The position numbers and the translations under genes are program-made. This document shows positions 228-38,681 of a stretch of 64,000 nt of DNA, one piece after another; within the stretch, counting starts at the first letter, position 1; each line of letters opens with the position of its first letter. The DNA comes from Escherichia phage ECO07P2, in sequence record OP172785. One strand, written 5' to 3'. The notes beneath the pieces were generated by a model. The model did no database searches, was not told where the DNA came from, and saw only the letters and a list, made by a program, of their open reading frames with translations.

Positions 228-3200
228 ATGGCTACTTTAAAACAAATACAATTTAAAAGAAGCAAAACCGCAGGTGCTCGTCCTGCTGCTTCAGTATTAG
301 CCGAAGGTGAATTGGCTATAAACTTAAAAGATAGAACAATTTTTACTAAAGACGATTTAGGAAATATCATTGATCTGGGTTTTGCTAAAGGCGGGCAAGT
401 TGATGGAAATGTGACTATCAATGGTCTTTTGAAATTAAACGGCGATTATGTACAAACTGGTGGAATGACCGTAAATGGACCTATTGGTTCTACTGAAGGC
501 ATAACTGCAAAAGTTTTCAGATCTACACAAGGTTCATTTTATACAAGAGCCTCAAATGATACTTCCAATGCCCATCTTTGGTTTGAAAATGCCGATGGCA
601 TTGAACGAGGCGTTATATATGCTCGTCCTCAAACTACAACTGACGGTGAAATACGTCTTAGAGTTAGACAAGGAACCGGAAGCACTATTAATAGCGAATT
701 CTATTTCCGTTCTATAAACGGCGGCGAATTTCAAGCCAACCGTATTTTAGCATCAGATTCGTTAGTAACTAAACGCATTGCGGTTGATACTGTTATTCAC
801 GATGCCAAAGCCTTTGGGCAATATGATTCTCAATCTTTGGTTAACTATGTTTATCCTGGAACCGGTGAAACAAACGGTATAAACTATCTTCGTAAAGTTC
901 GCGCTAAAGCTGCCGGAACCATGTGGCATGAAATCTGTACAGCTCAGACTGGCCAAGCAGATGAAATGTCTTGGTGGACGGGTAATACTCCATCATCTAA
1001 ACAATATGGTATTCGTAACGACGGCCGAATGGCTGGGCGTAATAGCCTTGCATTAGGTACATTCACTGCAGATTTCCCGTCTAGTGATTATGGTAACGTC
1101 GGTGTAATGGGCGATAAGTATCTTGTTCTCGGTGACACTGTAACTGGCTTGTCATACAAAAAAACTGGTGTATTTGATCTAGTTGGCGGTGGATATTCTG
1201 TTGCTTCTATTACTCCTGATAGTTTCCGTAGTACTCGCAAAGGTTTATTTGGACGTTCAGAAGACCAAGGCGCTACATGGAACATGCCTGGAAACAACGC
1301 CGCGCTTTTATCGGTTCAAACACAAGCTGATGGAAACACTGCTGGTGACGGTCAAACCCACATTGGATATAATTCTGGCGGTAAAATGAACCATTATTTC
1401 CGTGGTACAGGTCAGATGAATATCAATACCCAGCAAGGTACGGAAATTAACCCGGGTATTTTGAAATTAGTAACTGGCTCTAATAACGTACAATTTTATG
1501 CTGACGGCACTATTTCTTCTATCCAACCTGTTAAATTAGACAACGAATTATTTTTAAATAATTCTAATAATACTGCGGGCATTAAATTTGGCGCCCCTAG
1601 CAAAGTTGATGGCTCGAGAACTATCCAATGGAATGCCGGGACCCGTGCAGGACAAAATAAAAATTATCTGATTATGAAAGCTTGGGGTAATGCATTCGAC
1701 TCCACTGCCGGTAATCGCGAAACTGTATTTGAATTATACGATGGTCAGGGCTATCATTTTTATTCTCAACGTTTAGCTCCAACGGGTTCTGAAACTGTCG
1801 GTGCTCTTCAATTTAGAATTTCCGGCGCTTTACGTGTGGGTGGTGGTATTATATCAGCTGGTTCTATTGTTAGTGAATCAAGTTTAGTTGCAAATAATGG
1901 ATTGTCTATAAACGGCCAAGCTAAATTCGGTGGAACTGCAGATGCATTGAGAATTTGGAATGCTGAATATGGTGCTATTTTCCGTCGTTCAGAAACAGCA
2001 TTGCACATTATTCCTACTCTTAAAGACCAAGGAGAAAATGGTGAAATAGGTAATCTTCGTCCATTGAGCATCGCACTTCATAACGGTATGGTGCAAATGC
2101 GTCATTCCGTCACGTTAGGTGATGATGGTGCAGGCGGTAATATGGTTACTGTTGATAATGATAGTAAACTTGTTGTTGTTACTAGTAATAGTCGCATTTC
2201 TCCTAATTATAATATGCAATTAGGACAAAATGCTTATATAGATATTCAGGCTTCTGACGGCGTTCGTCCAGCAGGGTGTGGTTCATTTGCATCCCAGAAT
2301 GACGTAAACGTCAGAGCTCCAATTTATATGAATATAGAGCGTACTGCTACTTCTGAATACATTCCTATTATTAAACAACGGTATGTAAAGGGTGATAGCA
2401 CTTATTCTATTGGCACCTTAATTGCCCAAGGAGACTTCCGTGTCCATTATCACCAAGGTACTAGTACTACCGGAACCGATATAAGTTGGGAATTCCGTCG
2501 TACCGGTGACTTCCGCTTACCTGGTAAAATTATTGTAGGCAACACAACTTTAGGAACTGATGGTAATATCACCGGTGGCTCTGGTAACTTTGCTAACTTA
2601 AACAGTACGATTGAATCACTTAAAACTGATATTGTTTCAAGTTATCCTATTGGAGCTCCAATTCCATGGCCAACGGATACTCCTCCTGACGGTTACGCTA
2701 TTATGGAAGGTCAGACTTTTGATAAGTCTGCATATCCTAAGCTCGCTATCGCATATCCTACAGGTACTATTCCTGATATGCGTGGACAAACTATCAAGGG
2801 TAAACCAAGTGGTCGTGCTGTTTTGAGCGCAGAAGCAGATGGTGTTAAGGCTCATAGTCATAGTGCAAGTGCATCAAGCACAGATTTAGGTACTAAAACC
2901 ACATCAAGCTTTGACTATGGTACTAAGACGACAAGTAGTTTCGACTATGGTACTAAGACCAGTAATAATACTGGTGCTCATACGCATAGTTTGAGCGGTT
3001 CCACAAACACCGCCGGTGCGCACAGCCACACAAGCGCTCTTTATGCGGGCGATAGAGACTCTCCTGGTGGTAGTTCTGCAAGAGGATCCGCCGGTGGTGG
3101 TAATACGCTTGGAACTTCTTCTTCTGGGGCACATTCGCACTCTATATCTGGTACTGCTGCAAGCGCAGGCGCTCACGCACATACTGTTGGTATTGGTGCT

Positions 3201-3344
3201 CATACCCATACAGTTGGTATTGGTGCCCATACTCACTCTGTTGCGATTGGTTCGCATGATCATACTATCACTGTAAATAGTACAGGTAATACAGAAAACA
3301 CGGTTAAAAACATTGCTTTTAACTATATCGTTCGTTTAGCATAA
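228..3344 (+). CDS. 37: long tail fiber distal subunit gp37 (receptor-binding)
   Basis: 1038-aa ORF; N-terminus [13 protein letters not shown] and C-terminal His-x-His repeat region (GAHSHT, GAHTHT) as I recall for T4 gp37. Confidence 0.95.
2886..2950 (+). repeat. in-frame tandem repeat inside gene 37 encoding [10 protein letters not shown] twice
   Basis: Two ~30-bp units with synonymous differences (ggtactaaaaccacatcaagctttgactat / ggtactaagacgacaagtagtttcgactat). Confidence 0.7.
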
Positions 3345-6693: not shown

Positions 6694-7329
6694 TCACAGT
6701 TCAGATGCTACGGTGATTACTGCTTCAATGTTTTCTGCCGAGCGTTTAATGTCAAGATACACATTACCATTTTTAGCGATTTTGCATGACATACCGATGT
6801 CAGTAAATTTCTGAATATGATGTTCCATCATTTTGTATCCAAAAATTCGCATATTTCCATTGTTGTTAATTTCAAAATTACGAATTCCGTGAGTGCGTTT
6901 TTCTAAAATAGCGAGATAGTTACTACGATAAGTTTCAACTTTTTTAAGAACAAATCCATTTTCATCTAAAAGTTTTAACATGAAATCTTTATCTTCTTCC
7001 ATATCAGAAGTAATCTCGCGAGCTTTACGAGTTGCTCGTTTTTTCAGTAGTTCCGGAGCATTTTCCTGTGCGTATAAAGTTGCCGCGTTTGAAATAATAT
7101 CCTGAGCTTCACCAGTAATGATTAATCCATCACCAGATTTCTCCACCAGGCCTTTTTTAATCAATACCCCAATATTACTATTAACTACTGCATTACCTAA
7201 ATCTGGATGCACCTCACGAACTTCTGCAGCTGTAATGAAATCTTTCTTAGCAATGGTAATTAAAATCGCAGCAGTTTTTTCATTCAGAACATCGTTAGAA
7301 GCTTTGATGATGTAAGTTACTTTAGACAT
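6694..7329 (-). CDS. motA: MotA middle-transcription activator
   Basis: 211-aa ORF MSKVTYIIKASNDVLNEKTAAILITIAKKDFITAAEVREVHPDLG recognised as T4 MotA. Confidence 0.93.
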   Translation of the reverse strand: MSKVTYIIKASNDVLNEKTAAILITIAKKDFITAAEVREVHPDLGNAVVNSNIGVLIKKGLVEKSGDGLIITGEAQDIISNAATLYAQENAPELLKKRATRKAREITSDMEEDKDFMLKLLDENGFVLKKVETYRSNYLAILEKRTHGIRNFEINNNGNMRIFGYKMMEHHIQKFTDIGMSCKIAKNGNVYLDIKRSAENIEAVITVASEL

Positions 7330-7357
7330 TTTCTAATCTCCGTAATTCTGTATCAGC

Positions 7358-7391
7358 AGTTGATAGTTGTATAGTACCACAGTATGCTTTG
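7358..7391 (-). promoter_or_regulatory. early promoter (GTTTAC -35, TACTAT -10) upstream of motA
   Basis: Minus strand GTTTACAACCAAAGCATACTGTGGTACTATAC; upstream A/T tract; shares the conserved leader repeat. Confidence 0.55.
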
Positions 7392-7420
7392 GTTGTAAAC
7401 CGTTTTGTGAAAAAAATTTT

Positions 7421-7440
7421 AAAATAAAAAGGGAGAGCCA
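7421..7440 (-). terminator. intrinsic terminator-like hairpin
   Basis: gggagagccaaggctctccc perfect stem followed on minus strand by U-rich run; right after small gene stop. Confidence 0.5.
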
Positions 7441-7455
7441 AGGCTCTCCCTAAAA

Positions 7456-9832: not shown

Positions 9833-10048
9833 TTAATCATCGCAGTCGACGCTTAATTCCCAGAACTCTTCTACAGTATAAGTTTCAGTATCATTTTCAA
9901 TACAGAAACGTTCATTGCTGTTATTTGCTAAAGTAGCGTTAACTGTCATTTTCTCGCTAGTGCTTTTAAGAGGCGAAATACGAATTAACTGATCACCATT
10001 ATCTAAGCAAAAAATTTCACCAACTTTTACATCTTTAAAGATTTTCAT
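9833..10048 (-). CDS. hypothetical protein (71 aa)
   Basis: Track ORF upstream of ndd. Confidence 0.5.
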   Translation of the reverse strand: MKIFKDVKVGEIFCLDNGDQLIRISPLKSTSEKMTVNATLANNSNERFCIENDTETYTVEEFWELSVDCDD

Positions 10049-10163
10049 AATTCACCTCAAGGAGTATAAAATCCAAATGCAGTTGTTGACCATCCCATCC
10101 AATATGGGAAATTTGCACCAATGTAAAACATAAGAATATAAAACCAAATGCTTAGTAAATTCA

Positions 10164-10382
10164 TTATTTTACACCATTCCAAATTGTTTCAACCACAGAT
10201 TTTAAGCCATTTTGGTGAATATCCATTCCGACAACTGCCATCAAATAGATTCCAACTACAACTGAACCTAAGGCAAAAATCAGCATGAAAATGAATAAAG
10301 CTGGAAAAATATTATCGAAAAACCATTCAATAAATGTAAAAGCACTGCGTTTACGCTTCATATTTTCCTCACATAAATCCAA
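10164..10382 (-). CDS. hypothetical membrane protein (72 aa)
   Basis: Track ORF with hydrophobic core FIFMLIFALGSVVVGIYLMAVVG. Confidence 0.5.
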   Translation of the reverse strand: MDLCEENMKRKRSAFTFIEWFFDNIFPALFIFMLIFALGSVVVGIYLMAVVGMDIHQNGLKSVVETIWNGVK

Positions 10383-10482
10383 AGTAAGCGTTTAATACAT
10401 CAATCATTAAAACGATTGGGAATATACTCAAAACTACTAGTATTATAACTACATTCCATATAGCTTTAACAATCTTTTTCAT
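10369..10482 (-). CDS. small membrane protein (~37 aa)
   Basis: Track ORF 10369-10617 reads through a promoter; likely start MKKIVKAIWNVVIILVVLSIFPIVLM after SD GGAGGAACAGAAAATG. Confidence 0.4.
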   Translation of the reverse strand: MKKIVKAIWNVVIILVVLSIFPIVLMIDVLNAYFGFM

Positions 10483-10510
10483 TTTCTGTTCCTCCGTAGT
10501 TGATAGTTGT

Positions 10511-10540
10511 ATAGTACCACAGAGGAACAGTCTTGTAAAC
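10511..10540 (-). promoter_or_regulatory. early promoter within conserved promoter/leader cassette
   Basis: Minus strand GTTTACAAGACTGTTCCTCTGTGGTACTATAC then leader ACAACTATCAACTACGGAGGAACAGAAAATG. Confidence 0.55.
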
Positions 10541-10725
10541 AACTTTTTTAAAAATATTCGTAATAAATGTGAATACCAACTACTACCGCTGAAACTTGTG
10601 CAACCCACCACGCACAAGCAATAAGTACAGAATTCAAAATTTTCATAATAACCTCATCACAAAAGTAAATACTAAACAAATCAATGGAATACTAATTAAC
10701 CAAACAAAACACCACCACAATGAAC

Positions 10726-10998
10726 TCATAGTTCAATCTCAGCGATTTTCATTTCATTACTATTAATAGCCGCTTTAAGACTATCTGAAAGAATTACATC
10801 CCAGTGGTCATTCATATGACCATTAACTAAGCGTGTAATTTCTTCAGGAGTTGAAAAATAAGGCGTATCAGACTCCCAGTGCGATAGTCCCAAGCGAGTA
10901 TAAATCATACCTTCATCATCGCTAGAATATTCAACTGACACAAACTCATCAGTTATTTTATGTTTAGCGTAATAAAATTTAAATTTCATTTTACTCAA
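10726..10998 (-). CDS. hypothetical protein (90 aa)
   Basis: Track ORF MSKMKFKFYYAKHKITDEF. Confidence 0.55.
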   Translation of the reverse strand: MSKMKFKFYYAKHKITDEFVSVEYSSDDEGMIYTRLGLSHWESDTPYFSTPEEITRLVNGHMNDHWDVILSDSLKAAINSNEMKIAEIEL

Positions 10999-11201
10999 TA
11001 ATCCGCTAAAAGATCGACGATTGCATCACGAAGACACTTATTCGCAATACGCTTAAAAGCAATTTCAGTTTCTGGAGCATTTTGAATAATCATTGAATTC
11101 AATTCAGCCTCAGCAAACTGAAGTTCTTTAACTAATTCAGCTTTATATTTTCCTTGCCCTTTCTTAGCTTTTGCTCGTTTTAATTCAGCTGTAGTAAACA
11201 T
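10995..11201 (-). CDS. hypothetical protein (~68 aa)
   Basis: Track ORF 10995-11300 reads through a promoter; probable start MFTTAELKRAKAKKGQGKYK. Confidence 0.5.
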   Translation of the reverse strand: MFTTAELKRAKAKKGQGKYKAELVKELQFAEAELNSMIIQNAPETEIAFKRIANKCLRDAIVDLLADY

Positions 11202-11235
11202 TTTATTCTCCAAATCCGTATCAGTTGATAGTTGT

Positions 11236-11265
11236 ATAGTACCACAGTCCTTGTGGTATGTAAAC
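11236..11265 (-). promoter_or_regulatory. early promoter (conserved cassette variant)
   Basis: Minus strand GTTTACATACCACAAGGACTGTGGTACTATAC with upstream AAATTTTCACAAAAC A/T tract. Confidence 0.5.
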
Positions 11266-11281
11266 CGTTTTGTGAAAATTT

Positions 11282-11839
11282 TTAAATGGAAAGATACCAT
11301 CCGTTGTAGTTGCTTTTTCTTACAACTTTACGAAGGTCTTCTCTATCACCAATGAACTTCGGAGTGTACTGGATGACACCTGGATGAATTTCTTTAGTGT
11401 TGAATATAATTATACAGTCAGCGACCTGATGATTCAGAATGGGCCCTAGATTTATTCCAGAACCGTATGGATACTCTCCGCTGCATCCTGTTGTTACAGA
11501 AATCCAACGTGAGTCAGTTTGGTGTGTTTTGACTTCTACACGAAGCCCGCAATATCTTGGATGAGCCAATACATCCCATGCATATGTATACGGGTCATTA
11601 ACATCCTCTTGGCCTTTGTTAACATACCCGCTCAGCCAATCTGCTACAAAAAACTCTGCATACACAGCGATACGGCATCTTTCGATGACTTCTGCTTTAT
11701 CCTGATTAGGATTTTGTTTTAAAGAGTATCTTGCTGTATCAGCAATTTTGACCTTCATTTCACTAGTCAAGTCATTGTTCGATAGGGTAAATGTCGGAAT
11801 CTGAAATAGTCTCTGTAAACCCGGATTCGTTTTCTGCAT
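11282..11839 (-). CDS. denB: DenB endonuclease IV (cytosine-DNA specific)
   Basis: 185-aa ORF, size and position next to rIIB match T4 denB; sequence identity not independently verified. Confidence 0.65.
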   Translation of the reverse strand: MQKTNPGLQRLFQIPTFTLSNNDLTSEMKVKIADTARYSLKQNPNQDKAEVIERCRIAVYAEFFVADWLSGYVNKGQEDVNDPYTYAWDVLAHPRYCGLRVEVKTHQTDSRWISVTTGCSGEYPYGSGINLGPILNHQVADCIIIFNTKEIHPGVIQYTPKFIGDREDLRKVVRKSNYNGWYLSI

Positions 11840-11907
11840 TAAACTTTCCTTTTACGTCGGAATCACTGATATTCATACAATAAATCATAGTTTCCCTTAA
11901 AACAAAA

Positions 11908-11919
11908 GGGCCGAAGCCC
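11908..11919 (-). terminator. GC tetraloop hairpin (gggccgaagccc)
   Basis: Perfect stem with CGAAG loop flanked by A/T runs, in intergenic space. Confidence 0.4.
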
Positions 11920-11925
11920 TTTATT

Positions 11926-12120
11926 TTATTTGAACTGTGCAATTCTTTTCTCTAAACAATCTGCGTAAGATTTCATTGAGATAAACTGCGAAAGCAGTAA
12001 TTCTTGCTCAACTGCATTAACCGTTGAAAACTTTTCACTTTCTAAAAATTTGCTCAGTGCATTAATTTTGAGCATTAATTGATCGTATTCTTCTTTTACT
12101 CGTGCTTGATAACCTAACAT
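11926..12120 (-). CDS. hypothetical protein (64 aa)
   Basis: Track ORF between rIIB and denB. Confidence 0.5.
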   Translation of the reverse strand: MLGYQARVKEEYDQLMLKINALSKFLESEKFSTVNAVEQELLLSQFISMKSYADCLEKRIAQFK

Positions 12121-12136
12121 AATTTTCCTTAGTTAA

Positions 12137-12148
12137 GGGCCGAAGCCC
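12137..12148 (-). terminator. GC tetraloop hairpin (gggccgaagccc) after rIIB stop
   Basis: Same hairpin family, immediately 3' of rIIB. Confidence 0.4.
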
Positions 12149-13087
12149 TTATTTAAATTGTTCAGTAACGTCTTCAACTACTTCGTATTGACAGGTACGC
12201 ATTTTAGCATCGTTGTAATCAATCGGAATTGATACTACATCACGAGGATGTACTTTAACTTTTACAACTCGGCTGGTTGAACTGCCAAAGTGACGAATAT
12301 AAGATTTAGAACACACATGCAGACCACGAGAACAAGTTTGTGTATCATCGTCATTCACGCGAGTACGTGGCATTTTAACTACTTTACCAGGACTGTTATC
12401 AAAGGTATTTGAGTGACAGTCAAAGTAATTGCTGCGAACTACTTTCCAAGCATAGAAGTAACCGTCTTCTGTAATTTCAATATCGTTTGCTACCAAGAAA
12501 TCAAAGAGTCGAGATACCGCTTTTTGGCTCGGGTTTTCCAACAGATTTTCCAAGAACGGAAAATAAAATTCAAAGTTTTCACCTTTTTCCATCGAATCGA
12601 GAATACGATCAACTAAACCAGACCGCAATTCAATGTTTTGATAGAACAAGCTTCCACCTTCAATTCGAACATCACCGGAAATATATTTTTCAACAGCACG
12701 ACGAACGTTAATTTTTTGCGCTGCTTCTTCCAATTTATCCGCAACAAGCAGATTAAGAATTTCTTGGAAGTTTGAATGAGTATTAGGAGTTGCGTTATAA
12801 GTTACACCATCAACAGTAATTGAAATGAATTTTTTAGATGCATTCCAAATAATGTCAGATTTAGCAACTGGAGCAATAGCTGCATCACTCTTAACTTTAA
12901 CTGTAATGTCACCGCTAATGGTAACTTTGGAGCGCTCAGCTTCTTCAGCATTTTTCAAAACACGACGGATTGTGTCCACCGATACACCTTGCCAATCAGC
13001 CAATTCCTGTTGGGTGTAATTACCACTTGAATACAGTTTGACAATTTCAGCTTGTTCGTTTTTGGTCAGGCATTTAATATTGTACAT
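12149..13087 (-). CDS. rIIB: rIIB membrane-associated protein
   Basis: 312-aa ORF MYNIKCLTKNEQAEIVKLYSSGNYTQQELADWQGVSVDTIRRVLKNAEEA recognised as T4 rIIB. Confidence 0.95.
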   Translation of the reverse strand: MYNIKCLTKNEQAEIVKLYSSGNYTQQELADWQGVSVDTIRRVLKNAEEAERSKVTISGDITVKVKSDAAIAPVAKSDIIWNASKKFISITVDGVTYNATPNTHSNFQEILNLLVADKLEEAAQKINVRRAVEKYISGDVRIEGGSLFYQNIELRSGLVDRILDSMEKGENFEFYFPFLENLLENPSQKAVSRLFDFLVANDIEITEDGYFYAWKVVRSNYFDCHSNTFDNSPGKVVKMPRTRVNDDDTQTCSRGLHVCSKSYIRHFGSSTSRVVKVKVHPRDVVSIPIDYNDAKMRTCQYEVVEDVTEQFK

Positions 13088-15515: not shown

Positions 15516-15545
15516 ATTATACCACATCCTTGTGGTAAAGTAAAC
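15516..15545 (-). promoter_or_regulatory. early promoter GTTTAC-18-TATAAT
   Basis: Minus strand GTTTACTTTACCACAAGGATGTGGTATAAT; contains CCACA/TGTGG inverted repeat. Confidence 0.6.
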
Positions 15546-17362
15546 TACTGACTCATCCATTCTTTACGAAGGTCAGCATTATCTCCCATGAGCATTTCAA
15601 AAAGCTCTTTCCAGTTCTCAGGAAGTTTAACAACATCATATACTGGATTTTGAATCATCTCACGATATTCAGATTTTTCCAAAGAGCCAAGTCCCTTAAT
15701 ATAACGGATGCTATGTTTAGGTAGAGCATCTTTAGCACTCTCATATTCAGCGACTGTATAAAACCATTCTTGTTTTTTACCGACCTGAGCGATGATTACA
15801 GGAGTTTTGACAAAGCGAATTCTTCCTTGTTCAAACAGTTCTGGCCAATTACTGAAAAATCCGAGCAGAGAAGGATAAATGCTTCCTAGACCATCGTGGT
15901 CAGCGTCAGTCATAATAGCAATATTATGATAATTCAAGTTTTCGGCTTTTTCACCAAGAACTAATCCAGTGATTGCGCAAATATCAAACAGTTCTTTGTT
16001 TTTAAGCATATCAGCATATGACATACCCCAACTGTTGAGAACTTTACCACGTAATGGATAACCACCATGAAGTTCTTTATCACGAACATCAATAAGATAT
16101 CCGATAGCGGAATCACCCTCAGTCAAGAAAAGAGTAGTGTCAGCATCTTTACCACAAAGATTCGCTTTAATATGTTTATGAACCTTAGCTTTAGAAGCCT
16201 TTTTAGCTGCTTTAGTTTCTGCTGCTTTTTCTGCCGCCAATTTACGAGCCAAGGCAGCTTCAATGATTGGCATTAAAATTGCTTCATTGTTTAAAATAGC
16301 GCGTGAAATCTTTTTAGCATCAAGCTGAATATGACTACGAATTTCACCAAAAGGAGAAGTCAAACGCTCTTTAGTTTGAGAATCAAATCGCATGTTTTTC
16401 ATATCACGAACAAACATAACGATAGTCAAACATTCTTTAACACGTGCTTTAGTTACATCAATTTTAAATTTACGTTTGATTTGTGGAATAAGGTCTTCAC
16501 AAATATCATCCATAACACAGTCAATGTGATGACCACCATTCTTAGTATGAATGTTATTGACGTATGTTAATTGACGAAAACCATCCGGTGAACGACCAAC
16601 CGCAATAGAGCAATTTTCCTGTTCTTGAACGATAGCATGCTCATCATACTGGCGTGCATACTTCTTAAAATTGCCCTGAACCTTTTTACCATTAAAGGTA
16701 AATTGAATATCAGGATAAACTACTGCAAGTGTCTGGAGACGATCTAGTGTAATGTCAAGATAAACTTGGGACAGCTCATTAGTTTCAAATGACATAAAAT
16801 CAGGAATGAAAGTAACGCGAGTTCCTTTCCATTTTCCAGGAATAGTTTCCCATGATTTATTTTCCATGCCGTTTGAACAACGAACTACAATATTATTTTG
16901 ACCGTCGCCAGTTTCACCGACAAACATCACAGAAAAAATGTTAGTTAAACTAGAACCAACACCGTTCATACCGCCAGTGACGCGTTCTTTGTCATCACCG
17001 AAGTTACCACCTGCTTTTGGAATAGTCCATGCAGCAACAGGACCAGGAATTTCTTCACCGGTAGGTGTTTTAACCATCGCCTGTGGAATACCACGACCGT
17101 TATCTTCAACTGTTACTTGATTGTTTTTAATAGTAACATTAATTTTATTCGCGAATTTAAACTTAGTACGAATACCTTCATCTACTGAGTTATCGATAAT
17201 TTCATCAATAAGCTTAACAAGACCAGGTACATACTGAACACTTTCCCATTTACCAAACAGAAAGCGCTCATGCATTTCATTAGCAGAAGAGCCAATATAC
17301 ATGCCGCTACGCTTTTTGATATGTTCAATATCGCTCAGAATTTTAATTTCATTCTTAATCAT
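15545..17362 (-). CDS. 39: DNA topoisomerase II large (ATPase) subunit, uninterrupted gp39 form
   Basis: ~605-aa ORF MIKNEIKILSDIEHIKKRSGMYIGSS ... RKEWMSQ with GyrB-like motifs through the C-terminus in one frame; start set to ATG after GTG in track. Confidence 0.9.
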   Translation of the reverse strand: MIKNEIKILSDIEHIKKRSGMYIGSSANEMHERFLFGKWESVQYVPGLVKLIDEIIDNSVDEGIRTKFKFANKINVTIKNNQVTVEDNGRGIPQAMVKTPTGEEIPGPVAAWTIPKAGGNFGDDKERVTGGMNGVGSSLTNIFSVMFVGETGDGQNNIVVRCSNGMENKSWETIPGKWKGTRVTFIPDFMSFETNELSQVYLDITLDRLQTLAVVYPDIQFTFNGKKVQGNFKKYARQYDEHAIVQEQENCSIAVGRSPDGFRQLTYVNNIHTKNGGHHIDCVMDDICEDLIPQIKRKFKIDVTKARVKECLTIVMFVRDMKNMRFDSQTKERLTSPFGEIRSHIQLDAKKISRAILNNEAILMPIIEAALARKLAAEKAAETKAAKKASKAKVHKHIKANLCGKDADTTLFLTEGDSAIGYLIDVRDKELHGGYPLRGKVLNSWGMSYADMLKNKELFDICAITGLVLGEKAENLNYHNIAIMTDADHDGLGSIYPSLLGFFSNWPELFEQGRIRFVKTPVIIAQVGKKQEWFYTVAEYESAKDALPKHSIRYIKGLGSLEKSEYREMIQNPVYDVVKLPENWKELFEMLMGDNADLRKEWMSQ

Positions 17363-17415
17363 CACTTATCCTCGTTTGGTTTCGGGAATATTATACTCCA
17401 GTAATCATAAAGCTA

Positions 17416-17431
17416 AAGGCCCGAAGGCCTT
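17416..17431 (-). terminator. GC hairpin aaggcccgaaggcctt
   Basis: Perfect 6-bp stem, tetraloop, flanked by T-rich tract. Confidence 0.4.
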
Positions 17432-17692
17432 TTATTTAAAGCGGATAGTCGAATCCTTGAAGAATAGACCAGAACATACGGTTCCTTCTACTTTCTGCCC
17501 GGTAGGTCCAATAGCACGAAATCCAGTATGTTGGAAATCATTTTCAGAGCAACCGAACCAATTATATCCAGTGATTTCAATATTAGTAAAACCACTTGAA
17601 GACAAAACTTTGGTTGCATTATCAGCATCAGTACATCCTACTAAAGATACTGCTAATACTAATGCCGCGATAGAACGATTAACATATTTCAT
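17432..17692 (-). CDS. putative lipoprotein (39.1 position, ~86 aa)
   Basis: MKYVNRSIAALVLAVSLVGC: signal peptide with lipobox L-V-G-C; start trimmed to ATG. Confidence 0.6.
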   Translation of the reverse strand: MKYVNRSIAALVLAVSLVGCTDADNATKVLSSSGFTNIEITGYNWFGCSENDFQHTGFRAIGPTGQKVEGTVCSGLFFKDSTIRFK

Positions 17693-18882: not shown

Positions 18883-19164
18883 TTAATTGAACAGTGGAGC
18901 GATGCGTTTCAGAAGAGTAGCAGCACCTTTGGCAAATTTTACATCATGAAAAACAGTTTCTTCTTCCGTTACAACACGAACTTTAATGTTTTCACAATCC
19001 CAATTTTTGCGAACAATCTTCAAAAGCTGCAGTAAATCTTTACATTCAGCAATATCGATAACACATCCACGAGAATCTTCCATTATCGCACGATAACCAT
19101 AAGCCATACCATAATCGTTGAAAGATTGTTCGATGATAATTAAGTTTTCCATTTTATTCTCCAA
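18883..19164 (-). CDS. hypothetical protein (93 aa)
   Basis: Track ORF downstream of conserved promoter/leader cassette at ~19171-19240. Confidence 0.55.
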   Translation of the reverse strand: MENKMENLIIIEQSFNDYGMAYGYRAIMEDSRGCVIDIAECKDLLQLLKIVRKNWDCENIKVRVVTEEETVFHDVKFAKGAATLLKRIAPLFN

Positions 19165-19170
19165 GTTGTT

Positions 19171-19240
19171 TTCTGTATCAGTAGTTGATAGTTGTATAGT
19201 ACCATAATCAACTACTGATGTATATAGTTTTATGAAAAAA
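19171..19240 (-). promoter_or_regulatory. early promoter/leader cassette variant
   Basis: Contains gttgatagttgtatagtacca leader repeat and upstream A/T tract. Confidence 0.45.
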
Positions 19241-20264: not shown

Positions 20265-20768
20265 TTAGTCTAAAGTAATAAAGCCTTTTAATTCAGCATG
20301 CGATTTACGGAACATTACTTGGTGTCCGCCAATTATAACTTCATCTTCAGGAACTTCGTATACAGCGAGATAAAATCCTTTAGAAGATAATTCTTCACGC
20401 TCTTCTCGAGTGAACCATCTCATCATATCATATTCACTAGCGAAAGCAAAATGATAAAGAGCTATAAACCATCCTGGAATATAGTGATCTACGCCTACAT
20501 ATTCCTCTTTCTCAAATTTAGTATTAATTGCTATATTAGCATTTTTAACTAATAATTTGTCTTCGCGCGGAAGAGGAATTCTTTTGTTATCATTACTATG
20601 ATGTGTAAAATTAGGTCTATCATAACCTACGTGTAATAACCACTCTTCGCTCCATGAATCTATTATACTCCTGTATGGAGTTATTTGAACACAAAGATTT
20701 CGACGTATTGTTATAGCATCTTCACAATTAAGAATACTAAACGATGATTCAACACGATAAATTTTCAT
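20265..20768 (-). CDS. hypothetical protein (~167 aa)
   Basis: Track ORF trimmed to MKIYRVESSF start, preceded by SD GAGGATAATAAA and promoter. Confidence 0.55.
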   Translation of the reverse strand: MKIYRVESSFSILNCEDAITIRRNLCVQITPYRSIIDSWSEEWLLHVGYDRPNFTHHSNDNKRIPLPREDKLLVKNANIAINTKFEKEEYVGVDHYIPGWFIALYHFAFASEYDMMRWFTREEREELSSKGFYLAVYEVPEDEVIIGGHQVMFRKSHAELKGFITLD

Positions 20769-20786
20769 TTTATTATCCTCAGTAGC

Positions 20787-20826
20787 TATGGTGTTATAAT
20801 ACCACAACTAACCGAGGAAGTAAACA
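20787..20826 (-). promoter_or_regulatory. early promoter GTTTAC-18-TATTAT
   Basis: Minus strand GTTTACTTCCTCGGTTAGTTGTGGTATTAT. Confidence 0.55.
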
Positions 20827-25110: not shown

Positions 25111-25730
25111 TCAACTACCTCAATATCATACACTTTAAATGTTCCAAATGAATCGTGTAATTTTTCTTTTGAAATAGAAGTTATTTTATACTTTCCAATT
25201 GGAATCATCCATTCTTGTTCACGTACAATCATCATTAAGTTATCAGTACGTTCTGAATCTAATCCATCAGTATCTTCATATGTATACTTAAACTCAGTAT
25301 TAGGAGAAGAAAGTATAATATCGCTGATATGGTCAGAGTAATTAAAAGCTTTATCAGTTTTTAAGCGAAGTATTGTGTCAGTGAAATATTCGGCATAAGA
25401 AAAAGAACACGCTGTATGCAAACTAGTAGTAAATGAATCTACTCTGTTCGTTGAAAACACTTCTCCGACTTGTAAATCTTTAATGAGTTCTTTTGTCGAT
25501 TTTGATATACCACGATATAGCTGATAAGGCGATTTAGTTAAATGCTTTTTAACGATTTTATTCAACTGCTGATGAAGAGCTTCATTCTTTTTGGCTTCCA
25601 TACATTGCCAAAGAACTGACTGTTCAAAGTCAGTAAATTTTTCACAGACCTTTTTATACATATCATATTGAAAATCGACACTTTCAGCTTTTATAGATAA
25701 CTGTTCAACATCTGCAAGATTAATAATCAT
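25107..25730 (-). CDS. modB: ModB ADP-ribosyltransferase
   Basis: 207-aa ORF; YRG, S-T-S-like and EQEWMIP motifs; tandem with modA. Confidence 0.85.
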   Translation of the reverse strand: MIINLADVEQLSIKAESVDFQYDMYKKVCEKFTDFEQSVLWQCMEAKKNEALHQQLNKIVKKHLTKSPYQLYRGISKSTKELIKDLQVGEVFSTNRVDSFTTSLHTACSFSYAEYFTDTILRLKTDKAFNYSDHISDIILSSPNTEFKYTYEDTDGLDSERTDNLMMIVREQEWMIPIGKYKITSISKEKLHDSFGTFKVYDIEVVE

Positions 25731-25752
25731 GATAGCCTCCGTATACTTCAGA

Positions 25753-25785
25753 AGCTATCATATCATTGTTAGGAAGGAAAGTAAA
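25753..25785 (-). promoter_or_regulatory. early promoter GTTTAC-18-TATGAT
   Basis: Minus strand GTTTACTTTCCTTCCTAACAATGATATGAT. Confidence 0.5.
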
Positions 25786-25797
25786 CAACTTTTTGAA

Positions 25798-28198: not shown

Positions 28199-28206
28199 TA
28201 TTTATA
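28199..28206 (-). promoter_or_regulatory. late promoter TATAAATA (minus strand) for soc
   Basis: Plus tatttata = minus TATAAATA ~32 nt upstream of soc ATG, followed by SD AAGGAG. Confidence 0.5.
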
Positions 28207-28380
28207 TCAGTTTTCAATGAAAACTTGTGCCATGAATTCATGTTCATCTTGAATTTGTTTATATAAAGCCATTACAGCATTTATATTAGAGCTATCTACT
28301 TTAAGTTGATAAGCATACAGCTCATGTAAATTAATTAAAGCTTTTTGACGTTTAATAAATTCTTCTTTGGATATTTTCAT
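28207..28380 (-). CDS. small hypothetical protein (~57 aa)
   Basis: Below track threshold; MKISKEEFIKRQKALINLHELYAYQLKVDSSNINAVMALYKQIQDEHEFMAQVFIEN. Confidence 0.4.
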   Translation of the reverse strand: MKISKEEFIKRQKALINLHELYAYQLKVDSSNINAVMALYKQIQDEHEFMAQVFIEN

Positions 28381-28580
28381 TTTGAATGCTCTATAATTAA
28401 TTTTAAGGCTTCTTCGCTGACAAAAATTTCATCAGGACCTTCTTCTACAACCCAATCAGCCATACGAAGCTGATTAGATAAGAGCTCACATACGAGCTCC
28501 TTATCATAATTTTTAAATAGCTGGTCAATACGTTTCTTGCGGGCTTTCTTAAGCTGGCGTTTATTTAAACGAGCCATCAA
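28377..28580 (-). CDS. hypothetical protein (67 aa)
   Basis: Track ORF; basic N-terminus MMARLNKRQLKKARKKRIDQ. Confidence 0.5.
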   Translation of the reverse strand: MMARLNKRQLKKARKKRIDQLFKNYDKELVCELLSNQLRMADWVVEEGPDEIFVSEEALKLIIEHSK

Positions 28581-29095
28581 TAACCTCGGTCTTGACGAGC
28601 GAAGTTTTCAGCATTTTTCAGATAATAAAGTTTAAAGATTTCTTCAGCCGTAAGACCAAGACCTTGGAACATGTTCAGAACGAAATGAAGAATATCAATC
28701 ATTTCGAATTTAATTTCCAACTGATCTTGCGGAGACAAATCAGTAATTAGAGTTTCACGGCGTTCACCATGTTGAGCTTTCCAAGGCTTCCATACAGCAG
28801 ATGCATCTTTTTCACCATTGCTCATGCCGCCAAGAGAAGTCAGAAGTTCACGGAATTCATCGTCAATATAATCTTTTTGATTACGCAGCCAATCAACAAC
28901 TTCGCCTGCAGTAGCCAAATCATCAGGATGACGGTTATATTCAGGTTTATCTTTAGCTAAACGAACCTGCAAAGATTTCTGCATATCAAGCATAACCTGT
29001 AGTGGGTCTTTTTCATCACCGAGAATATCCCAGTATTCATTTTGAGCTTTATCAGCGCCTTCGATCAGTTGTGAACATTCATTAAAGTATGCCAT
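28577..29095 (-). CDS. 56: dCTP pyrophosphatase gp56 (MazG-like)
   Basis: MAYFNECSQLIEGADKAQNEYWDILGDEKDPLQVMLDMQ...ENFARQDRGY; start trimmed from track 29188 to ATG after SD AAAGGA. Confidence 0.85.
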   Translation of the reverse strand: MAYFNECSQLIEGADKAQNEYWDILGDEKDPLQVMLDMQKSLQVRLAKDKPEYNRHPDDLATAGEVVDWLRNQKDYIDDEFRELLTSLGGMSNGEKDASAVWKPWKAQHGERRETLITDLSPQDQLEIKFEMIDILHFVLNMFQGLGLTAEEIFKLYYLKNAENFARQDRGY

Positions 29096-29166
29096 TATTT
29101 TTCCTTTCAATTCATGGGTTAGTAGATTAATTATACAATAAATATATAAAGCAATAAGGAGGACAT

Positions 29167-30394: not shown

Positions 30395-30559
30395 TTACTC
30401 TTCTTTTTCTTTAGATTCCTCTTTTTTCTTTTTAGGAATCTGTTCAGGGCCTTTATTTACTACAGCGCCTGACGTTGTTCCAGTAGAGATATTTTCAGGA
30501 TTACTACCCGAATCTCCAGCTACCATATCTTCTTTGATAAATTCTTTATATGTTTTCAT
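30395..30559 (-). CDS. small acidic/basic protein (~54 aa)
   Basis: Below track threshold; MKTYKEFIKEDMVAGDSGSNPENISTGTTSGAVVNKGPEQIPKKKKEESKEKEE. Confidence 0.4.
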   Translation of the reverse strand: MKTYKEFIKEDMVAGDSGSNPENISTGTTSGAVVNKGPEQIPKKKKEESKEKEE

Positions 30560-30560
30560 A

Positions 30561-30610
30561 TTAACCTCTATTCATAAAAGCATTAAAAATTTGGTCATCA
30601 ATCGATGGAA
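30561..30610 (-). repeat. direct repeat copy 1 (gene 3' end)
   Basis: ttaacctctattcataaaagcattaaaaatttggtcatcaatcgatgg vs copy at 30919-30965. Confidence 0.7.
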
Positions 30611-30917
30611 CAGCAACCTTTTCTACATCATTTAGCAAATCATTAATTTCATCAGATAGCATAACACATGTACCTTTATTTCCTGTAATTGTTACTGCAC
30701 AATTACGAACGTTTTCTTTATCAAATTTTAGGTTAATATTTTCGTAGTGAAAATCCTTTAATGCCGAATATATCTTTAAAATGAAATTGTCTTTTACTAC
30801 AATAAACCCAACCTCACTATTAAAACGCGGTTCATGGAAACTGTAATAAACCTTTTCATCTATAAAATCGTATGAAATTTTTTCCATTTTTAAATATGAA
30901 AATTCAGAACTATACAT
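30561..30917 (-). CDS. hypothetical protein (118 aa), shares C-terminal tail with next gene
   Basis: Ends SIDDQIFNAFMNRG; 3' ~45 bp nearly identical to 3' end of 30919-31551. Confidence 0.55.
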   Translation of the reverse strand: MYSSEFSYLKMEKISYDFIDEKVYYSFHEPRFNSEVGFIVVKDNFILKIYSALKDFHYENINLKFDKENVRNCAVTITGNKGTCVMLSDEINDLLNDVEKVAVPSIDDQIFNAFMNRG

Positions 30918-30918
30918 A

Positions 30919-30965
30919 TTAACCTTTATTCATAAAAGCATTAAAAATTTGATCGTCAATAGAAA
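30919..30965 (-). repeat. direct repeat copy 2 (gene 3' end)
   Basis: ttaacctttattcataaaagcattaaaaatttgatcgtcaatagaaac. Confidence 0.7.
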
Positions 30966-31846: not shown

Positions 31847-31949
31847 GATAATCTCCTCAGTAGTTTATGTTTATAGTATCTCAATTTTCAACAAAAGTAA
31901 ACACTAGTAGAAGCAAACAGACAAATTACAATAATTGGTGATTTCAGTT

Positions 31950-32141
31950 TCATTCTTCTCCTCCATGTTGATGAACATATTCTTTTTCAAGTCTAGAGCA
32001 CAAGTTTTCATATTCAACTAATAAAAATGAATCAAGTGCGTTATTTCTATGCTGACACCGTTCTTGTAAAGAATCCATCTCTGAACGTTGTTCTTGTGTT
32101 AATAATTGATAACCTGATACTTTAGACATTTTATTCTCCAT
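31950..32141 (-). CDS. hypothetical protein (63 aa)
   Basis: Track ORF. Confidence 0.45.
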   Translation of the reverse strand: MENKMSKVSGYQLLTQEQRSEMDSLQERCQHRNNALDSFLLVEYENLCSRLEKEYVHQHGGEE

Positions 32142-32193
32142 TTACTCGTTTGTTTTGATAGGTCTATAATAACATGTTTAAAACAAAAGTAAA

Positions 32194-32448
32194 CTATTTT
32201 ATTTCCTCAAGTTCGTTAATCAATAAAAGTTCTCTGACGCTAAAAACAAAGAAAAATGTGTTCCCATCAACCAGAGCATGACCGCTAATAGAACACCCTC
32301 TGCGGAATTTAGAAACTTCACAATCTAGAACTGTAAAGGGTTTTAATCCTATGACTTTAACTGTGCGTCTATTCAGTTCACAACCACTCGCGAATTTTTC
32401 CAAATCTTCTTCTGATTTAAACTGATATTCTCTATTAACTAGCATCAT
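32194..32448 (-). CDS. hypothetical protein (84 aa)
   Basis: Track ORF downstream of promoter 32478-32509. Confidence 0.5.
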   Translation of the reverse strand: MMLVNREYQFKSEEDLEKFASGCELNRRTVKVIGLKPFTVLDCEVSKFRRGCSISGHALVDGNTFFFVFSVRELLLINELEEIK

Positions 32449-32477
32449 TTTCTTTTCTCCGCGATTAGCTGATAGAA

Positions 32478-32509
32478 TTACTATAACACAACTCTATCAG
32501 CTTGTAAAC
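32478..32509 (-). promoter_or_regulatory. early promoter GTTTAC-18-TATAGT
   Basis: Minus strand GTTTACAAGCTGATAGAGTTGTGTTATAGTAAT. Confidence 0.5.
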
Positions 32510-34811: not shown

Positions 34812-35967
34812 TTAACTGGTCTAGGTCAGTTTCTAAATCAGCTGCTGATTTACTTTTACTTTCTGGAGATTTAAATTTTTCAACCTTTGAGTTAATCAAT
34901 TCGTCAACTTCAGCTTCAACAATTTCATTACTATCAATAGCACCTAACTGATAAGCGCGTTTAATAGCATCTCGGAATGGTTGATGCTTAAATAAAGGAC
35001 CCCAGAATGTAGTACAGTTGGTATCTTTTGCACGCCAAGATTTTTCTTCGCGAATCATCTCGCCAGTTTCTTCATCAAGAAATTCACGAGCATACCAACC
35101 GTTTTTAGGTTTTACTACAAATCCTAATTCAAGAGCCATATCTAACAATCCAGAATAAGGATCGATGCCACCGTCAAATTTAACATCAATGAAGAATTTA
35201 CTTTTTTCTTTAACGGTACGAGATTTTTCTACATTTAGAACAAATTGATACCCCTGAAGATCAGAACCATCTTTAATCTGGCGCTTACCGATAATGAATA
35301 CAGTATCAGCCGAATACATTACGCCTGTACCACCTGTCATCACGGTTTTACTAAACATCTCAATTGTTTCAATTGTATGGTTAACCGCAACACATGGAAT
35401 GTTTTTAATACTAAAATAAGGAGTAACAATACGGAATAATGACTTCAGCGATTTAGCACGAGTCATATCTGCCACAGATTTTTCATTCAAGGCATCTTCC
35501 GTTTCTTTCTTAGAAGCCATATTACCGATTGAGTCGATGAATACAATAACTTTTTCACCGCGCTCAATAGCTTCAAGCTGATTCACCATATCAATTTTCA
35601 GTTGTTCAACTGACTGGATTGGTGTATGAATTACTCGTTCCGGGTCAACTCCCATAGATCGCAAATAAGCTGGAGTGATACCAAATTCGCTATCATAGAA
35701 TAAACAAACCGCATCAGGATATTTGTTCAAATACGCCGCAACCATAGTCAAAGACATATTTGATTTAAAGTGTTTAGAAGGACCTGCAAAAATAGTTAAA
35801 CCAGACTGCATACCACCGTCAATCGCACCTGAAATAGCGATATTAAGCATTGGGATTTTTGTACGGATTACATCCTTTTCATTAAAGAATTTAGATGTAG
35901 TCAGTTCAGCAGTCATTTTAGAAGTGGAAGCTTTAATCAAACGGGATTTTAAATCTGCAATAGACAT
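34786..35967 (-). CDS. uvsX: UvsX recombinase (RecA-like)
   Basis: 393-aa ORF; Walker A GPSKHFKS; C-terminal SAADLETDLDQLSDMEEFNE as in T4 UvsX. Confidence 0.95.
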   Translation of the reverse strand: MSIADLKSRLIKASTSKMTAELTTSKFFNEKDVIRTKIPMLNIAISGAIDGGMQSGLTIFAGPSKHFKSNMSLTMVAAYLNKYPDAVCLFYDSEFGITPAYLRSMGVDPERVIHTPIQSVEQLKIDMVNQLEAIERGEKVIVFIDSIGNMASKKETEDALNEKSVADMTRAKSLKSLFRIVTPYFSIKNIPCVAVNHTIETIEMFSKTVMTGGTGVMYSADTVFIIGKRQIKDGSDLQGYQFVLNVEKSRTVKEKSKFFIDVKFDGGIDPYSGLLDMALELGFVVKPKNGWYAREFLDEETGEMIREEKSWRAKDTNCTTFWGPLFKHQPFRDAIKRAYQLGAIDSNEIVEAEVDELINSKVEKFKSPESKSKSAADLETDLDQLSDMEEFNE

Positions 35968-36044
35968 TCATTTTTTCCATAGGCATCATTATATTTTCCT
36001 CACTGGTTAAAGATAGAGTAATTATAACACAATAAATTTAGGCA

Positions 36045-36893
36045 TTAATCAACTGCTATTGGATGAATAGCATTAAACTTATGAAATGCTTCTGACTTTT
36101 CTTTGCGCGAAACACACATGCGAAGAACCTTTAATGGCTCGTCTTCTTCACCCAACGATTTTCGTTTTTCAATATTAGAAGTTTTCCAACGAGCTTGCTC
36201 TGGAAACTCTCTATTGATTTGCTCAAGCGCTCTATTATGTTTAGAATTACTACGAATTGAACTGCACCCGCCAGGAGCTTGTGCTTTTCCAGATACAACC
36301 AGATATTTGAACAAGGCCAAATGCGGATAACCTTGATTAATTAAATTGAGAAATGCATACATATCTTCGCACAAATCAATTTTTCCATACCCAATTTGTT
36401 CTGTCGTAAGTTTTCCAAGGTCATACCATGTATTCGTGAATCCATATGAATTTTCACGATAATTACCCCAAGATGAAGTAATTTTAAAAATTGGTAGGCG
36501 AGCATGGCCGTGATAATACCCGCAATCCATGGCATCTTCCACGTATTGAATCAATTCATAGAACTGTTCACGAGTTAATTGATTAATTTTATCTACACAG
36601 CGACGATCATCTTTCTTTCGCATTGAACTCATACGAATAGTAGTATCATCATCAATCATCCAGATTCGTTGACCTGCATACATATCAGTAATTGCTTTAC
36701 GAGTACCAGCAATTCCATTAACATCATCAGGAATAGTTATAATTTTAGCTCTAGACCCGTAAGCGTCATAATAAGCTTTTTCTTCGTGTTCACGTACTAC
36801 AATATGAGGTTCATAATCAGTCGGAAACATATCAAGGGCAGAAACTGCCCCTACGCGTTGATAGCTTGGAATTACGAATTGAATCATTTCCAC
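36045..36893 (-). CDS. putative glycosyltransferase with DxD motif at the beta-gt locus
   Basis: 282-aa ORF with IWMIDDDTTIR; does not resemble T4 beta-gt N-terminus as I recall; sits between uvsX and gene 42. Confidence 0.6.
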   Translation of the reverse strand: MEMIQFVIPSYQRVGAVSALDMFPTDYEPHIVVREHEEKAYYDAYGSRAKIITIPDDVNGIAGTRKAITDMYAGQRIWMIDDDTTIRMSSMRKKDDRRCVDKINQLTREQFYELIQYVEDAMDCGYYHGHARLPIFKITSSWGNYRENSYGFTNTWYDLGKLTTEQIGYGKIDLCEDMYAFLNLINQGYPHLALFKYLVVSGKAQAPGGCSSIRSNSKHNRALEQINREFPEQARWKTSNIEKRKSLGEEDEPLKVLRMCVSRKEKSEAFHKFNAIHPIAVD

Positions 36894-38417: not shown

Positions 38418-38429
38418 AATAATTTCCTC

Positions 38430-38681
38430 TTAAAACTTAACAAATAACTTTAAAGCATCTTCAGTTTTAATTCCTTTTCTTACACCCATAACAGAAATTG
38501 GCTGTGACTGAAATTTTCCTTTACCATTATAAATTTCCAATCCTGTCACCATTCCATTTTGTTCTATAATACCGTAAGTATTACCTTCATTTTCAAATTC
38601 TTTAACTTTAAAGAGTTTATTAGCTTTTTCTGCATTAACAACTTTTAAATTTTGAATAAAATTAGTTTGAATATTTTTCAT
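38430..38681 (-). CDS. hypothetical protein (~83 aa)
   Basis: Track ORF trimmed to MKNIQTNFIQNLK start after conserved promoter/leader cassette. Confidence 0.55.
   Translation of the reverse strand: MKNIQTNFIQNLKVVNAEKANKLFKVKEFENEGNTYGIIEQNGMVTGLEIYNGKGKFQSQPISVMGVRKGIKTEDALKLFVKF

Follow-up and report, generated by a model that had tools for sequence, protein, structure and literature searches.

PeSL-type early-promoter cassettes repeated in a Tequatrovirus genome, and a hairpin that may mask the SD on read-through RNA

Examining 64,000 nucleotides of Escherichia phage ECO07P2 DNA (record OP172785; "the window" hereafter means this whole stretch), we read the element in front of ndd.4 as one of six copies of a PeSL-type early-promoter cassette, with a core that would serve recombination and a hairpin that would mask the SD on read-through RNA, an overall explanation to which we assign a probability of about 0.7. 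The literature on T4-like phages already describes PeSL cassettes, this locus included, and the finding as stated rediscovers them, along with T4 early promoters, in a phage whose identity to T4 is 95%. It also provides a clean worked example, with junctions legible base by base, an ectopic conversion patch and one slot with three contents, all within a single window, and its main interest lies in whether the stems act on translation rather than on transcription.

The window is Tequatrovirus DNA (~95% identical to T4) with a G+C content of ~35% and minus-strand genes from ~4.2 kb onward; all features given below lie on the minus strand, in window coordinates. It is colinear with T4 from gene 37/38 through rIIB/rIIA to nrdC.8 at 92–97% identity, a colinearity broken by ~17 indels or replacements. 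The 3-kb piece around the 10480–10540 cassette, carrying rIIB, denB, the ndd.x genes and ndd, is 96–98% identical to many Tequatrovirus genomes (95–98% for the region overall), the ndd.5/ndd.4 junction with its cassette is present in 492 of 505 matching records, and positions 10000–11400 are colinear with PST at 96%, ORF269 and ORF268 included. Scanning the whole window against 4227 Rfam families, we found none that reached its gathering threshold.

Promoter anatomy and the six copies

The ndd.4 cassette (10480–10540; read from 10540 to 10480, GTTTACAAGACTGTTCCTCTGTGGTACTATACAACTATCAACTACGGAGGAACAGAAAATG) consists of GTTTACA, a 17-nt spacer, TGG plus TACTAT, a leader, the SD and ATG. Its -35 hexamer TTTACA occupies 10534–10539 with a G preceding at 10540, its extended -10 spans 10511–10519 (TGG at 10517–10519, TACTAT at 10511–10516), and an UP-like AT-rich region lies at 10541–10564, with 84% A+T in the 25 nt before the -35. 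The cassette drives the ndd.4 ORF (10369–10482), which encodes a predicted small membrane protein of 37 aa. A promoter scan returned TTTACA-17-TACTAT with a TGn at 10539, 11264 and 7399, fitting the T4/PST consensus TTTACW-N17-TAYWAT, and the element likewise matches the generic T4 early consensus GTTTAC(N14)gtggTAttaT (Miller et al. 2003, as quoted in OL960580), together with an UP element and a position ahead of an early gene. In OL960580, a South African isolate, the homologous ndd.4 and denB-proximal sites are annotated as T4 early promoters, each overlapped by a predicted terminator.

The predicted transcription start is the A at 10504, 7 nt after the -10, by analogy with T4 Pe26.4. For T4 Pe26.4 the region is given as starting at map unit 27,044 (PMC6024815), which is the A 7 nt after TACTAT in the orthologue of our 38738 copy. 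By this analogy, transcription by the host sigma-70 RNA polymerase is expected to begin near 10504 directly upon infection, and we infer that a sigma-70-type early promoter is active in this phage.

A sequence-only reading had reported near-identical elements at six minus-strand sites, and all six were recovered with exact cores: the 21-nt core TGGTACTATACAACTATCAAC occurs six times without a mismatch, at 7359–7379, 10499–10519, 11224–11244, 19184–19204, 38698–38718 and 63967–63987, with 0 copies expected in shuffles. A longer 42-nt query (TGTGG...AAAATG) is exact at 10480–10521 and 63948–63989 and has 3 mismatches at 38679–38720 (0 matches expected, from 100 shuffles). The same copies emerged from a repeat search of the window as families D1–D3. 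Aligned to T4, they correspond to the promoters of motA (7399) and ndd.4 (10539), the slot before ndd.6 (11264), the cef/motB intergenic slot (19224), the imm.1 slot (38738) and nrdC.8 (63948).

Each copy consists of an A/T-rich tract, TTTACA, a 17-nt spacer, TGn plus TACTAT, a 20–37-nt leader, an SD and ATG, with 72–88% A+T in the 25 nt before the -35 in the five copies whose upstream region lies inside the window. The SD and start context were said to recur in all six, and an SD and ATG do stand at each, but the whole leader plus SD is common to just three (10539, 38738 and 63948); the remaining three share the UP region, -35 and core and have different leaders. Likewise, the copies do precede different ORFs, as claimed, but these are not all small, the motA product being 211 aa and that of nrdC.8 about 175 aa.

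Among the three that share a leader, the nrdC.8 copy (63948–64000; ATG 63948–63950) is identical to the ndd.4 copy 53 kb away, with hairpin arms at 63984–63998 and 63954–63968; its -35 is not visible because the window end cuts the copy. The imm.1-slot copy (38679–38740), equivalent to T4 Pe26.4, drives an 86-aa ORF absent from T4 and has arms at 38715–38728 and 38686–38699 with one mismatch. In the PST-type ORF269 copy (11199–11265) the core is kept with a different leader, and the spacer holds the palindrome CCACA AGGAC TGTGG. The cef/motB-slot copy (19150–19225) also keeps the core; it has a degenerate -35 (TATACA), a 13-bp hairpin bracketing the -10 (19207–19219/19177–19189) and an ORF that is cut to 11 codons in T4. 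The motA copy (7329–7451) runs from a canonical terminator hairpin with a T-run (7430–7451) through an UP region, the -35 (7394–7399), the core (7359–7379) and the leader to the ATG at 7329.

One might suppose that these copies are alike by convergence of strong sigma-70 promoters, the inverted repeat being chance and recombination playing no part, given that the UP tract, GTTTAC and TGTGGTA..T are the generic T4 early consensus and that family D1 also draws in ordinary early promoters at 63–73% identity. The observations contradict this, and we give it almost no credence. Because the annotated T4 early consensus is GTTTAC(N14)gtggTAttaT, the copies exceed it by 12 nt after the -10 (ACAACTATCAAC); among the 18 early promoters that can be listed on the minus strand of the window, these 12 nt are identical in the six copies and absent from the other 12. 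The alignment proposed in the sequence-only reading thus extends beyond generic promoter hexamers in every copy, and three copies share the full leader and SD as well. Further evidence against convergence comes from the mosaic cassette halves, a conversion patch (p=2e-4) and a hairpin (z -3.9) kept in T4 and PST.

The irregular spacing and promoter-like content of the copies agree with the earlier statement that they are not CRISPR repeats, and on the same two grounds we dropped the tandem-repeat and att-site readings. An 'attL' label on a T6 cassette is apparently an automated call on a direct repeat, the neighbouring notes being in PHASTER format.

Gene exchange at the cassettes and the match to PeSLs

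The cassettes had been tied to modular gene shuffling, and four indels relative to T4 have junctions that we could read directly at cassettes, whether at the ATG, in the core or at GTTTAC. PST ORF269/ORF268 (10759–11198) are found in the window and in PST and are absent from T4, with the upstream junction exactly after the ATG of the 11264 cassette. At the imm.1 slot, a module comprising the leader-1 SD and the 86-aa ORF (38418–38691) is absent from T4 and T6, and its upstream junction falls inside the cassette core, immediately after ...CAACTAC: window and T4 are the same through ...ACAACTATCAACTAC and then diverge, the window continuing into a GGAGGAACAC leader and the ORF. The slot therefore has three states, being empty in T4 and T6, filled with the 86-aa ORF here and filled with a different, 78-aa ORF in wV7 (empty, ORF-A and ORF-B), and the window's version occurs in just 30 of 532 matching records. 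At the 19224 slot T4 retains ATGGAAAAT followed by unrelated sequence, an 11-codon remnant of the ORF. In the fourth event, two promoter-plus-ORF modules absent from T4 (31903–32504) have both junctions exactly on the GTTTAC of early promoters (31901 and 32508), which are two other early promoters and not six-copy cassettes. Comparing flanking genes among related phages (T4, PST, T6 and wV7), as had been proposed, thus places indels and replacements beside cassettes.

Evidence of exchange is also seen within the cassettes. Across loci and phages (the window, T4 and IMG/VR contigs), a small number of spacer types is joined in varying ways to a small number of leader types, a mosaic of halves such as crossovers in the shared core would produce. 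The IMG/VR part of this mosaic table came from a scan with a 20-nt core that yielded 21 stretches on few T4-like contigs, too few for statistics. Compared with T4, the ndd.4 cassette has 7 differences in 32 nt as against 10 in 339 nt of its flanks (p=2e-4); this clustering, together with the identity of the cassette to the one before nrdC.8, indicates a short ectopic conversion.

From these patterns we consider it likely that the repeated core takes part in recombination. The near-invariant core would act as a homology patch for the phage recombination system, such that one cassette could convert another and the small ORFs carried on cassettes could be inserted, deleted or replaced. Measured against other gene boundaries, the association of cassettes with indels (4 of about 10 non-endonuclease events, in one window) is not statistically separable, and cassettes are not the sole shuffling route, because no cassette is present at six further non-endonuclease indels relative to T4, which fall at plain stop/start overlaps.

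These properties are those of a published class. A PeSL combines an AT-rich tract, a sigma-70-like early promoter, a stem-loop and an SD/ATG (Arbiol et al. 2010, PMC2839356), the stem lying mostly between -35 and -10 or overlapping the -10, with G-T pairs allowed (PMC2839356). Comeau et al. 2014 extended PeSLs to T4/PST with the consensus TTTACW-N17-TAYWAT and gave, as a worked example in their Fig. 6A, an exchange at ndd.4/.5 versus PST ORF268/269 (PMC4122927); since window and PST are colinear there, the ndd.4 cassette and its 11264 neighbour are a published PeSL pair. Stable stem-loops near the promoter are found at 10539 (15 bp, z -3.85), 38738 (z -2.6) and 19224 (13 bp, z -5.5), with CCACA/TGTGG in the spacer at 11264 and the upstream terminator hairpin at 7399 as the corresponding structures there. 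The SD and start codon of the downstream gene stand at the 3' end, the copies are intergenic in variable regions (three of the six adjoin an indel relative to T4), and recombination between cassettes is reflected in the chimeric spacer/leader combinations, the conversion patch and the junction in the core. The suggestion that these are PeSL cassettes of T4-type phages thus holds up on promoter, AT tract, stem-loop, SD/ATG and the published ndd locus, and we are highly confident in identifying the cassette as a T4-type early promoter/PeSL.

A hairpin over the promoter and the SD

A 9-bp inverted repeat, CTGTTCCTC/GAGGAACAG, is located at 10522–10530/10486–10494 and 63990–63998/63954–63962, as the sequence-only reading had noted for these two copies, and the 38738 copy, described there as degenerate, keeps 9+4 pairs around one mismatch. 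G.U pairs lengthen the ndd.4 repeat to a 15-bp hairpin whose 5' arm (CTGTTCCTCTGTGGT, 10516–10530) lies in the promoter spacer, upstream of the +1, whose 15-nt loop holds the -10 and +1, and whose 3' arm (ACTACGGAGGAACAG, 10486–10500) contains the SD GGAGG (10491–10495). It folds at -23.4 kcal/mol (z -3.85), a stability reached by none of 200 shuffles; the T4 orthologue folds at -20.9 kcal/mol (z -4.2), and the hairpin is kept in both T4 and PST. Because the 5' arm is upstream of the predicted start and absent from the cassette's own transcript, only read-through RNA can form the hairpin. Such RNA should reach the cassette, since the ndd.5 stop TAA (10548–10550) sits in the UP-like region, 17 nt before the 5' arm, and a scan found no terminator between the two.

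Modelling the SD in both RNAs, we obtained an unpaired probability of 0.000 in read-through RNA (-75..+30 context) and 0.72 in the transcript from the predicted +1. In other words, the SD is predicted to be paired in long transcripts by an arm (10516–10530) that lies upstream of the predicted +1 at 10504. The same flip is predicted at 38738, 20824, 25785, 24450 and 52568, and the calculation recovers the documented case of gene 49, which served as positive control. Strong flips were predicted for 6 of 18 promoter-preceded genes versus 11 of 87 others, a modest enrichment (one-sided p=0.04, at a threshold chosen after the fact), and overall SD accessibility does not differ significantly between promoter-preceded and other genes (Mann-Whitney p=0.20). 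About half of the hairpins that bracket a -10 leave the SD uncovered (33011, 32508, 19224 and 19819).

Pairing between spacer and leader extends to unrelated promoters. Across the 18 early promoters, spacers pair with their own leaders at a mean of -11.5 kcal/mol versus -7.1 kcal/mol with the leaders of other promoters (0 of 20,000 permutations). Unrelated arm sequences at 20824, 33011, 32508, 19224 and 19819 indicate that the stem is not peculiar to the six-copy family; at the unrelated motB.2 early promoter (20765–20826), for example, the spacer pairs with its own SD over 17 bp (-23.7 kcal/mol).

Across genera a stem over the promoter is kept as a structure even where, as for nrdC.8 and motB.2, its sequence turns over, the SD being covered usually, not always. 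The nrdC.8 arms are CCGTTCCTCTGTGG and CTACGGAGGAAC in T4 (also given as CCGTTCCTC/GAGGAAC) and TCTCCAGTAG and CTACTGGAGG, masking the SD, in Dhakavirus IME341; in Mosigvirus JS09 an inner hairpin of spacer and -10 is accompanied by an outer helix on the SD, and in Gaprivervirus SP18 and TH15 a 13-bp hairpin surrounds the -10, with the SD left free. At motB.2, TTCTCCTCATG/CATGAGGAGAA replace the Tequatrovirus arms in IME341, and the SD is masked. At modB, four genera have largely the same -10/start-codon stem, in which the SD and AUG pair with the -10 of the gene's own promoter.

Would such a stem act as DNA or as RNA? In five of seven strong cases the sense strand folds better because of G.U pairs (the antisense is 4–8 kcal/mol weaker), the other two folding about equally on both strands, and when the stems of the window, T4 and PST are compared, most changes turn C-G into U.G or G-C into G.U, PST also having one U-A to U.G change; this sense-strand bias and the type of change favour RNA over DNA. 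A covariation test on seven distinct leader-1 cassettes returned 94% of cells paired, no double-sided change and no improvement over shuffles, and is uninformative because these sequences are too close; two basal pairs are broken in some of the seven. T4, T6 and wV7 can dispense with the hairpin at their imm.1 slot, because the CTGTTCTTCC spacer there is followed by leaders without a complement.

A role in DNA, in which the inverted repeat would be a cruciform or hairpin recombination hot spot (for endonuclease VII or gp46/47) or a dimeric-protein operator for early shut-off, would suit the indel junctions and the conversion patch inside cassettes, and the PeSL authors themselves speculated on a stem-specific DNA-binding protein, the shut-off of early promoters being described as not fully understood (PMC3014915). 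We regard it as very improbable, however: arm sequences differ so completely between promoters that there is no common operator, the G.T pairs of the stem are A.C mismatches on the other strand, which with the weaker antisense fold in five of seven cases speaks against a symmetric DNA structure, and three junctions fall outside the stems, lying in the core, at GTTTAC or at ATG.

Intrinsic terminators are short-loop, GC-rich hairpins directly followed by a U-tract. The ndd.4 hairpin (10486–10530) falls outside this class, having a 15-nt loop and, in place of a U-tract, the tail AAAAUGAAAAAG; U-runs are also missing from the other hairpins that bracket a -10, and neither 10539 nor 11264 was called in a terminator scan, whose loop limit of 8 would in any case rule out the 10539 hairpin. 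All the same, the PeSL authors proposed that the stem-loop is a terminator or attenuator for polymerase arriving from upstream, under which the SD pairing would be incidental. Their RB49 PeSL stem-loop, placed between promoter and lacZ, cut expression as much as rrnB T1 (PMC2839356), an assay in which termination and effects on translation are not distinguished. In OL960580 a 'rho-independent terminator' predicted by WebGeSTer overlies the homologous site, and directly upstream of the motA copy there is indeed a canonical terminator (7430–7451). That the arms changed in two other genera, yet the 3' arm stayed on the SD, is something a terminator would not need, and on balance we consider this proposal unlikely for the ndd.4 stem. 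Attenuation or termination and SD masking are not mutually exclusive, and both could possibly operate.

Returning to SD masking, we lean towards it as a physical effect, and hold it slightly short of an even chance as a selected function. On read-through RNA from the upstream genes (ndd.6/ndd.5) the spacer would fold back on the SD, and transcripts starting at the cassette would have a short A/C-rich leader with the SD free. With the SD so buried in read-through RNA, we propose that ndd.4 is therefore translated mainly from its own early promoter. RNA structure is known to protect GGAG from RegB (PMC3014915), and the GGAG of ndd.4 would be shielded on read-through RNA for that reason. More broadly, a subset of T4-type early cassettes may be 'promoter-of-origin' translational gates, with spacer or -10 as the anti-SD arm, an idea that we advance tentatively. 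Under such a gate, translation of a gene and its exposure to RegB would be confined to transcripts from its own early promoter, and the gene would stay silent on RNA reading through from early or middle promoters upstream; this would explain why the stem is kept on the promoter while its sequence turns over. Gates of this kind go unmentioned in the PeSL papers and the 2010 T4 reviews consulted.

If it is true that the stem masks the SD on read-through RNA, inserted ORFs would come translationally insulated besides carrying their own promoter, which would help explain how T4-like phages tolerate the constant insertion of small, possibly toxic early genes. Some of the GGAG sites at which RegB cuts early transcripts and not longer ones might be explained by masking as well.

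Comparison with known systems

The promoter itself is no different from T4 early promoters such as Pe26.4 and PmotA (Hinton 2010, PMC2988021), with which it shares the UP element, GTTTAC -35, TGn, -10 and A start; what the six-copy subfamily adds is the identical 12 nt after the -10. In position, the copies are orthologous to the T4 promoters of motA, ndd.4, ndd.6, imm.1 (Pe26.4) and nrdC.8. With intrinsic terminators, including the UUCG-tetraloop hairpins of T4, the ndd.4 structure has in common that it is a stable, G.U-tolerant, intergenic RNA hairpin, but the true terminators of the window (7430–7451 and 11905–11922) look quite different, and the tail of the ndd.4 hairpin is A-rich, not U-rich.

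Like PeSLs, these copies are intergenic, lie in hyperplastic regions and stand beside indels and replacements, and their crossover zones, between the -10 and the SD/ATG, are those of the RB49 mini-circles. They differ in how the stem is placed and read: the legend of the PST figure puts stems just upstream of the promoter, whereas the ndd.4 stem brackets the -10, and the PeSL papers view the stem as a terminator or attenuator, whereas here the 3' arm is the SD, without a U-tract. Translation is mentioned 0 times in both PeSL papers (PMC2839356, PMC4122927).

Closest in logic are T4 e, soc, 49 and I-TevI, in which a promoter lies inside an SD-sequestering hairpin (PMC3014915). There, as in our model of ndd.4, the 5' arm is upstream of the internal promoter, such that the long RNA buries the SD and the short RNA is translatable. 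The internal promoter of those genes is late (or middle) and their expression is delayed, whereas the promoter of the ndd.4 cassette is early; unlike them, the ndd.4 device would, according to the modelled folds, restrict translation to the gene's own early transcripts.

Predicted pairing at ribosome-binding sites with and without an early promoter

Evaluating the modB promoter (25725-25789) alongside three comparison sequences (L034, L035 and L036), we found that the -10 hexamer and discriminator of the gene's own promoter pair with its Shine-Dalgarno (SD) sequence and AUG (TATGATAGCTTC / GGAGGCTATCATG), and that Tequatro-, Gelderland-, Karam- and Jiaodavirus all retain this pairing. A second early-promoter subfamily, with members of 32 nt at 15516-15547 and 60996-61027 that are 97% identical, possesses a small palindrome (CCACAAGGATGTGG) between the -35 and -10, and belongs to the class of promoter-early stem-loop (PeSL) cassettes with a 'stem between the boxes'. 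Nearly complete SD pairing was also predicted, in a -75 to +30 context, at some genes possessing no early promoter (minus-strand starts at 56806, 51204, 42788 and 18247); gene 55 is one of these, as is gene 49, where such pairing is already documented.

The 'attL' label in T6

The 'attL' annotated in T6 falls on a cassette of the Pe26.4 type, named for a T4 early promoter (RefSeq NC_054907, 24507-24546; 2483-2522 in L026, our T6 sequence). We rejected this cassette as an attachment site; the label is apparently an automated call on the cassette as a direct repeat, the adjoining notes being in PHASTER format.

Terminator hairpins and gene content relative to T4

Scattered across the window is a family of GGGC-UUCG-GCCC tetraloop hairpins followed by T-runs on the minus strand (11898-11927, 12135-12162, 17408-17437, 41605-41634, 43775-43804, 48485-48514 and 52124-52153), which are canonical intrinsic terminators. 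Two copies in direct orientation, 229 nt apart, flank denB.1, and another lies at the edge of an indel between the window and T4 (41635).

Compared with T4, the window is missing the gene 60 bypass region with 60.1/mobA, segF, dam, segA with beta-gt (replaced), mobB, mobC and the nrdD intron with I-TevII (window sites 15880-15945, 28206-28614, 29135-29156, 35955-36902, 49701-49726, 54502-54522 and 55798-55799). An ORF of ~310 bp between 61.1 and 61.2 that T4 does not have is bracketed by a 49-nt direct repeat (30557-30605 and 30915-30963, 92% identical) of a gene-end/gene-start junction, and the arrangement resembles an insertion or duplication at the level of an ORF, with no promoter cassette.

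Tail-fibre repeats

The tail-fibre region, with a G+C of 0.40 that exceeds the rest of the window, possesses tandem 27-nt units on the plus strand (3168-3221) encoding GAHAHTVGI and GAHTHTVGI, which resemble the His-box repeats at the tips of T-even tail fibres.
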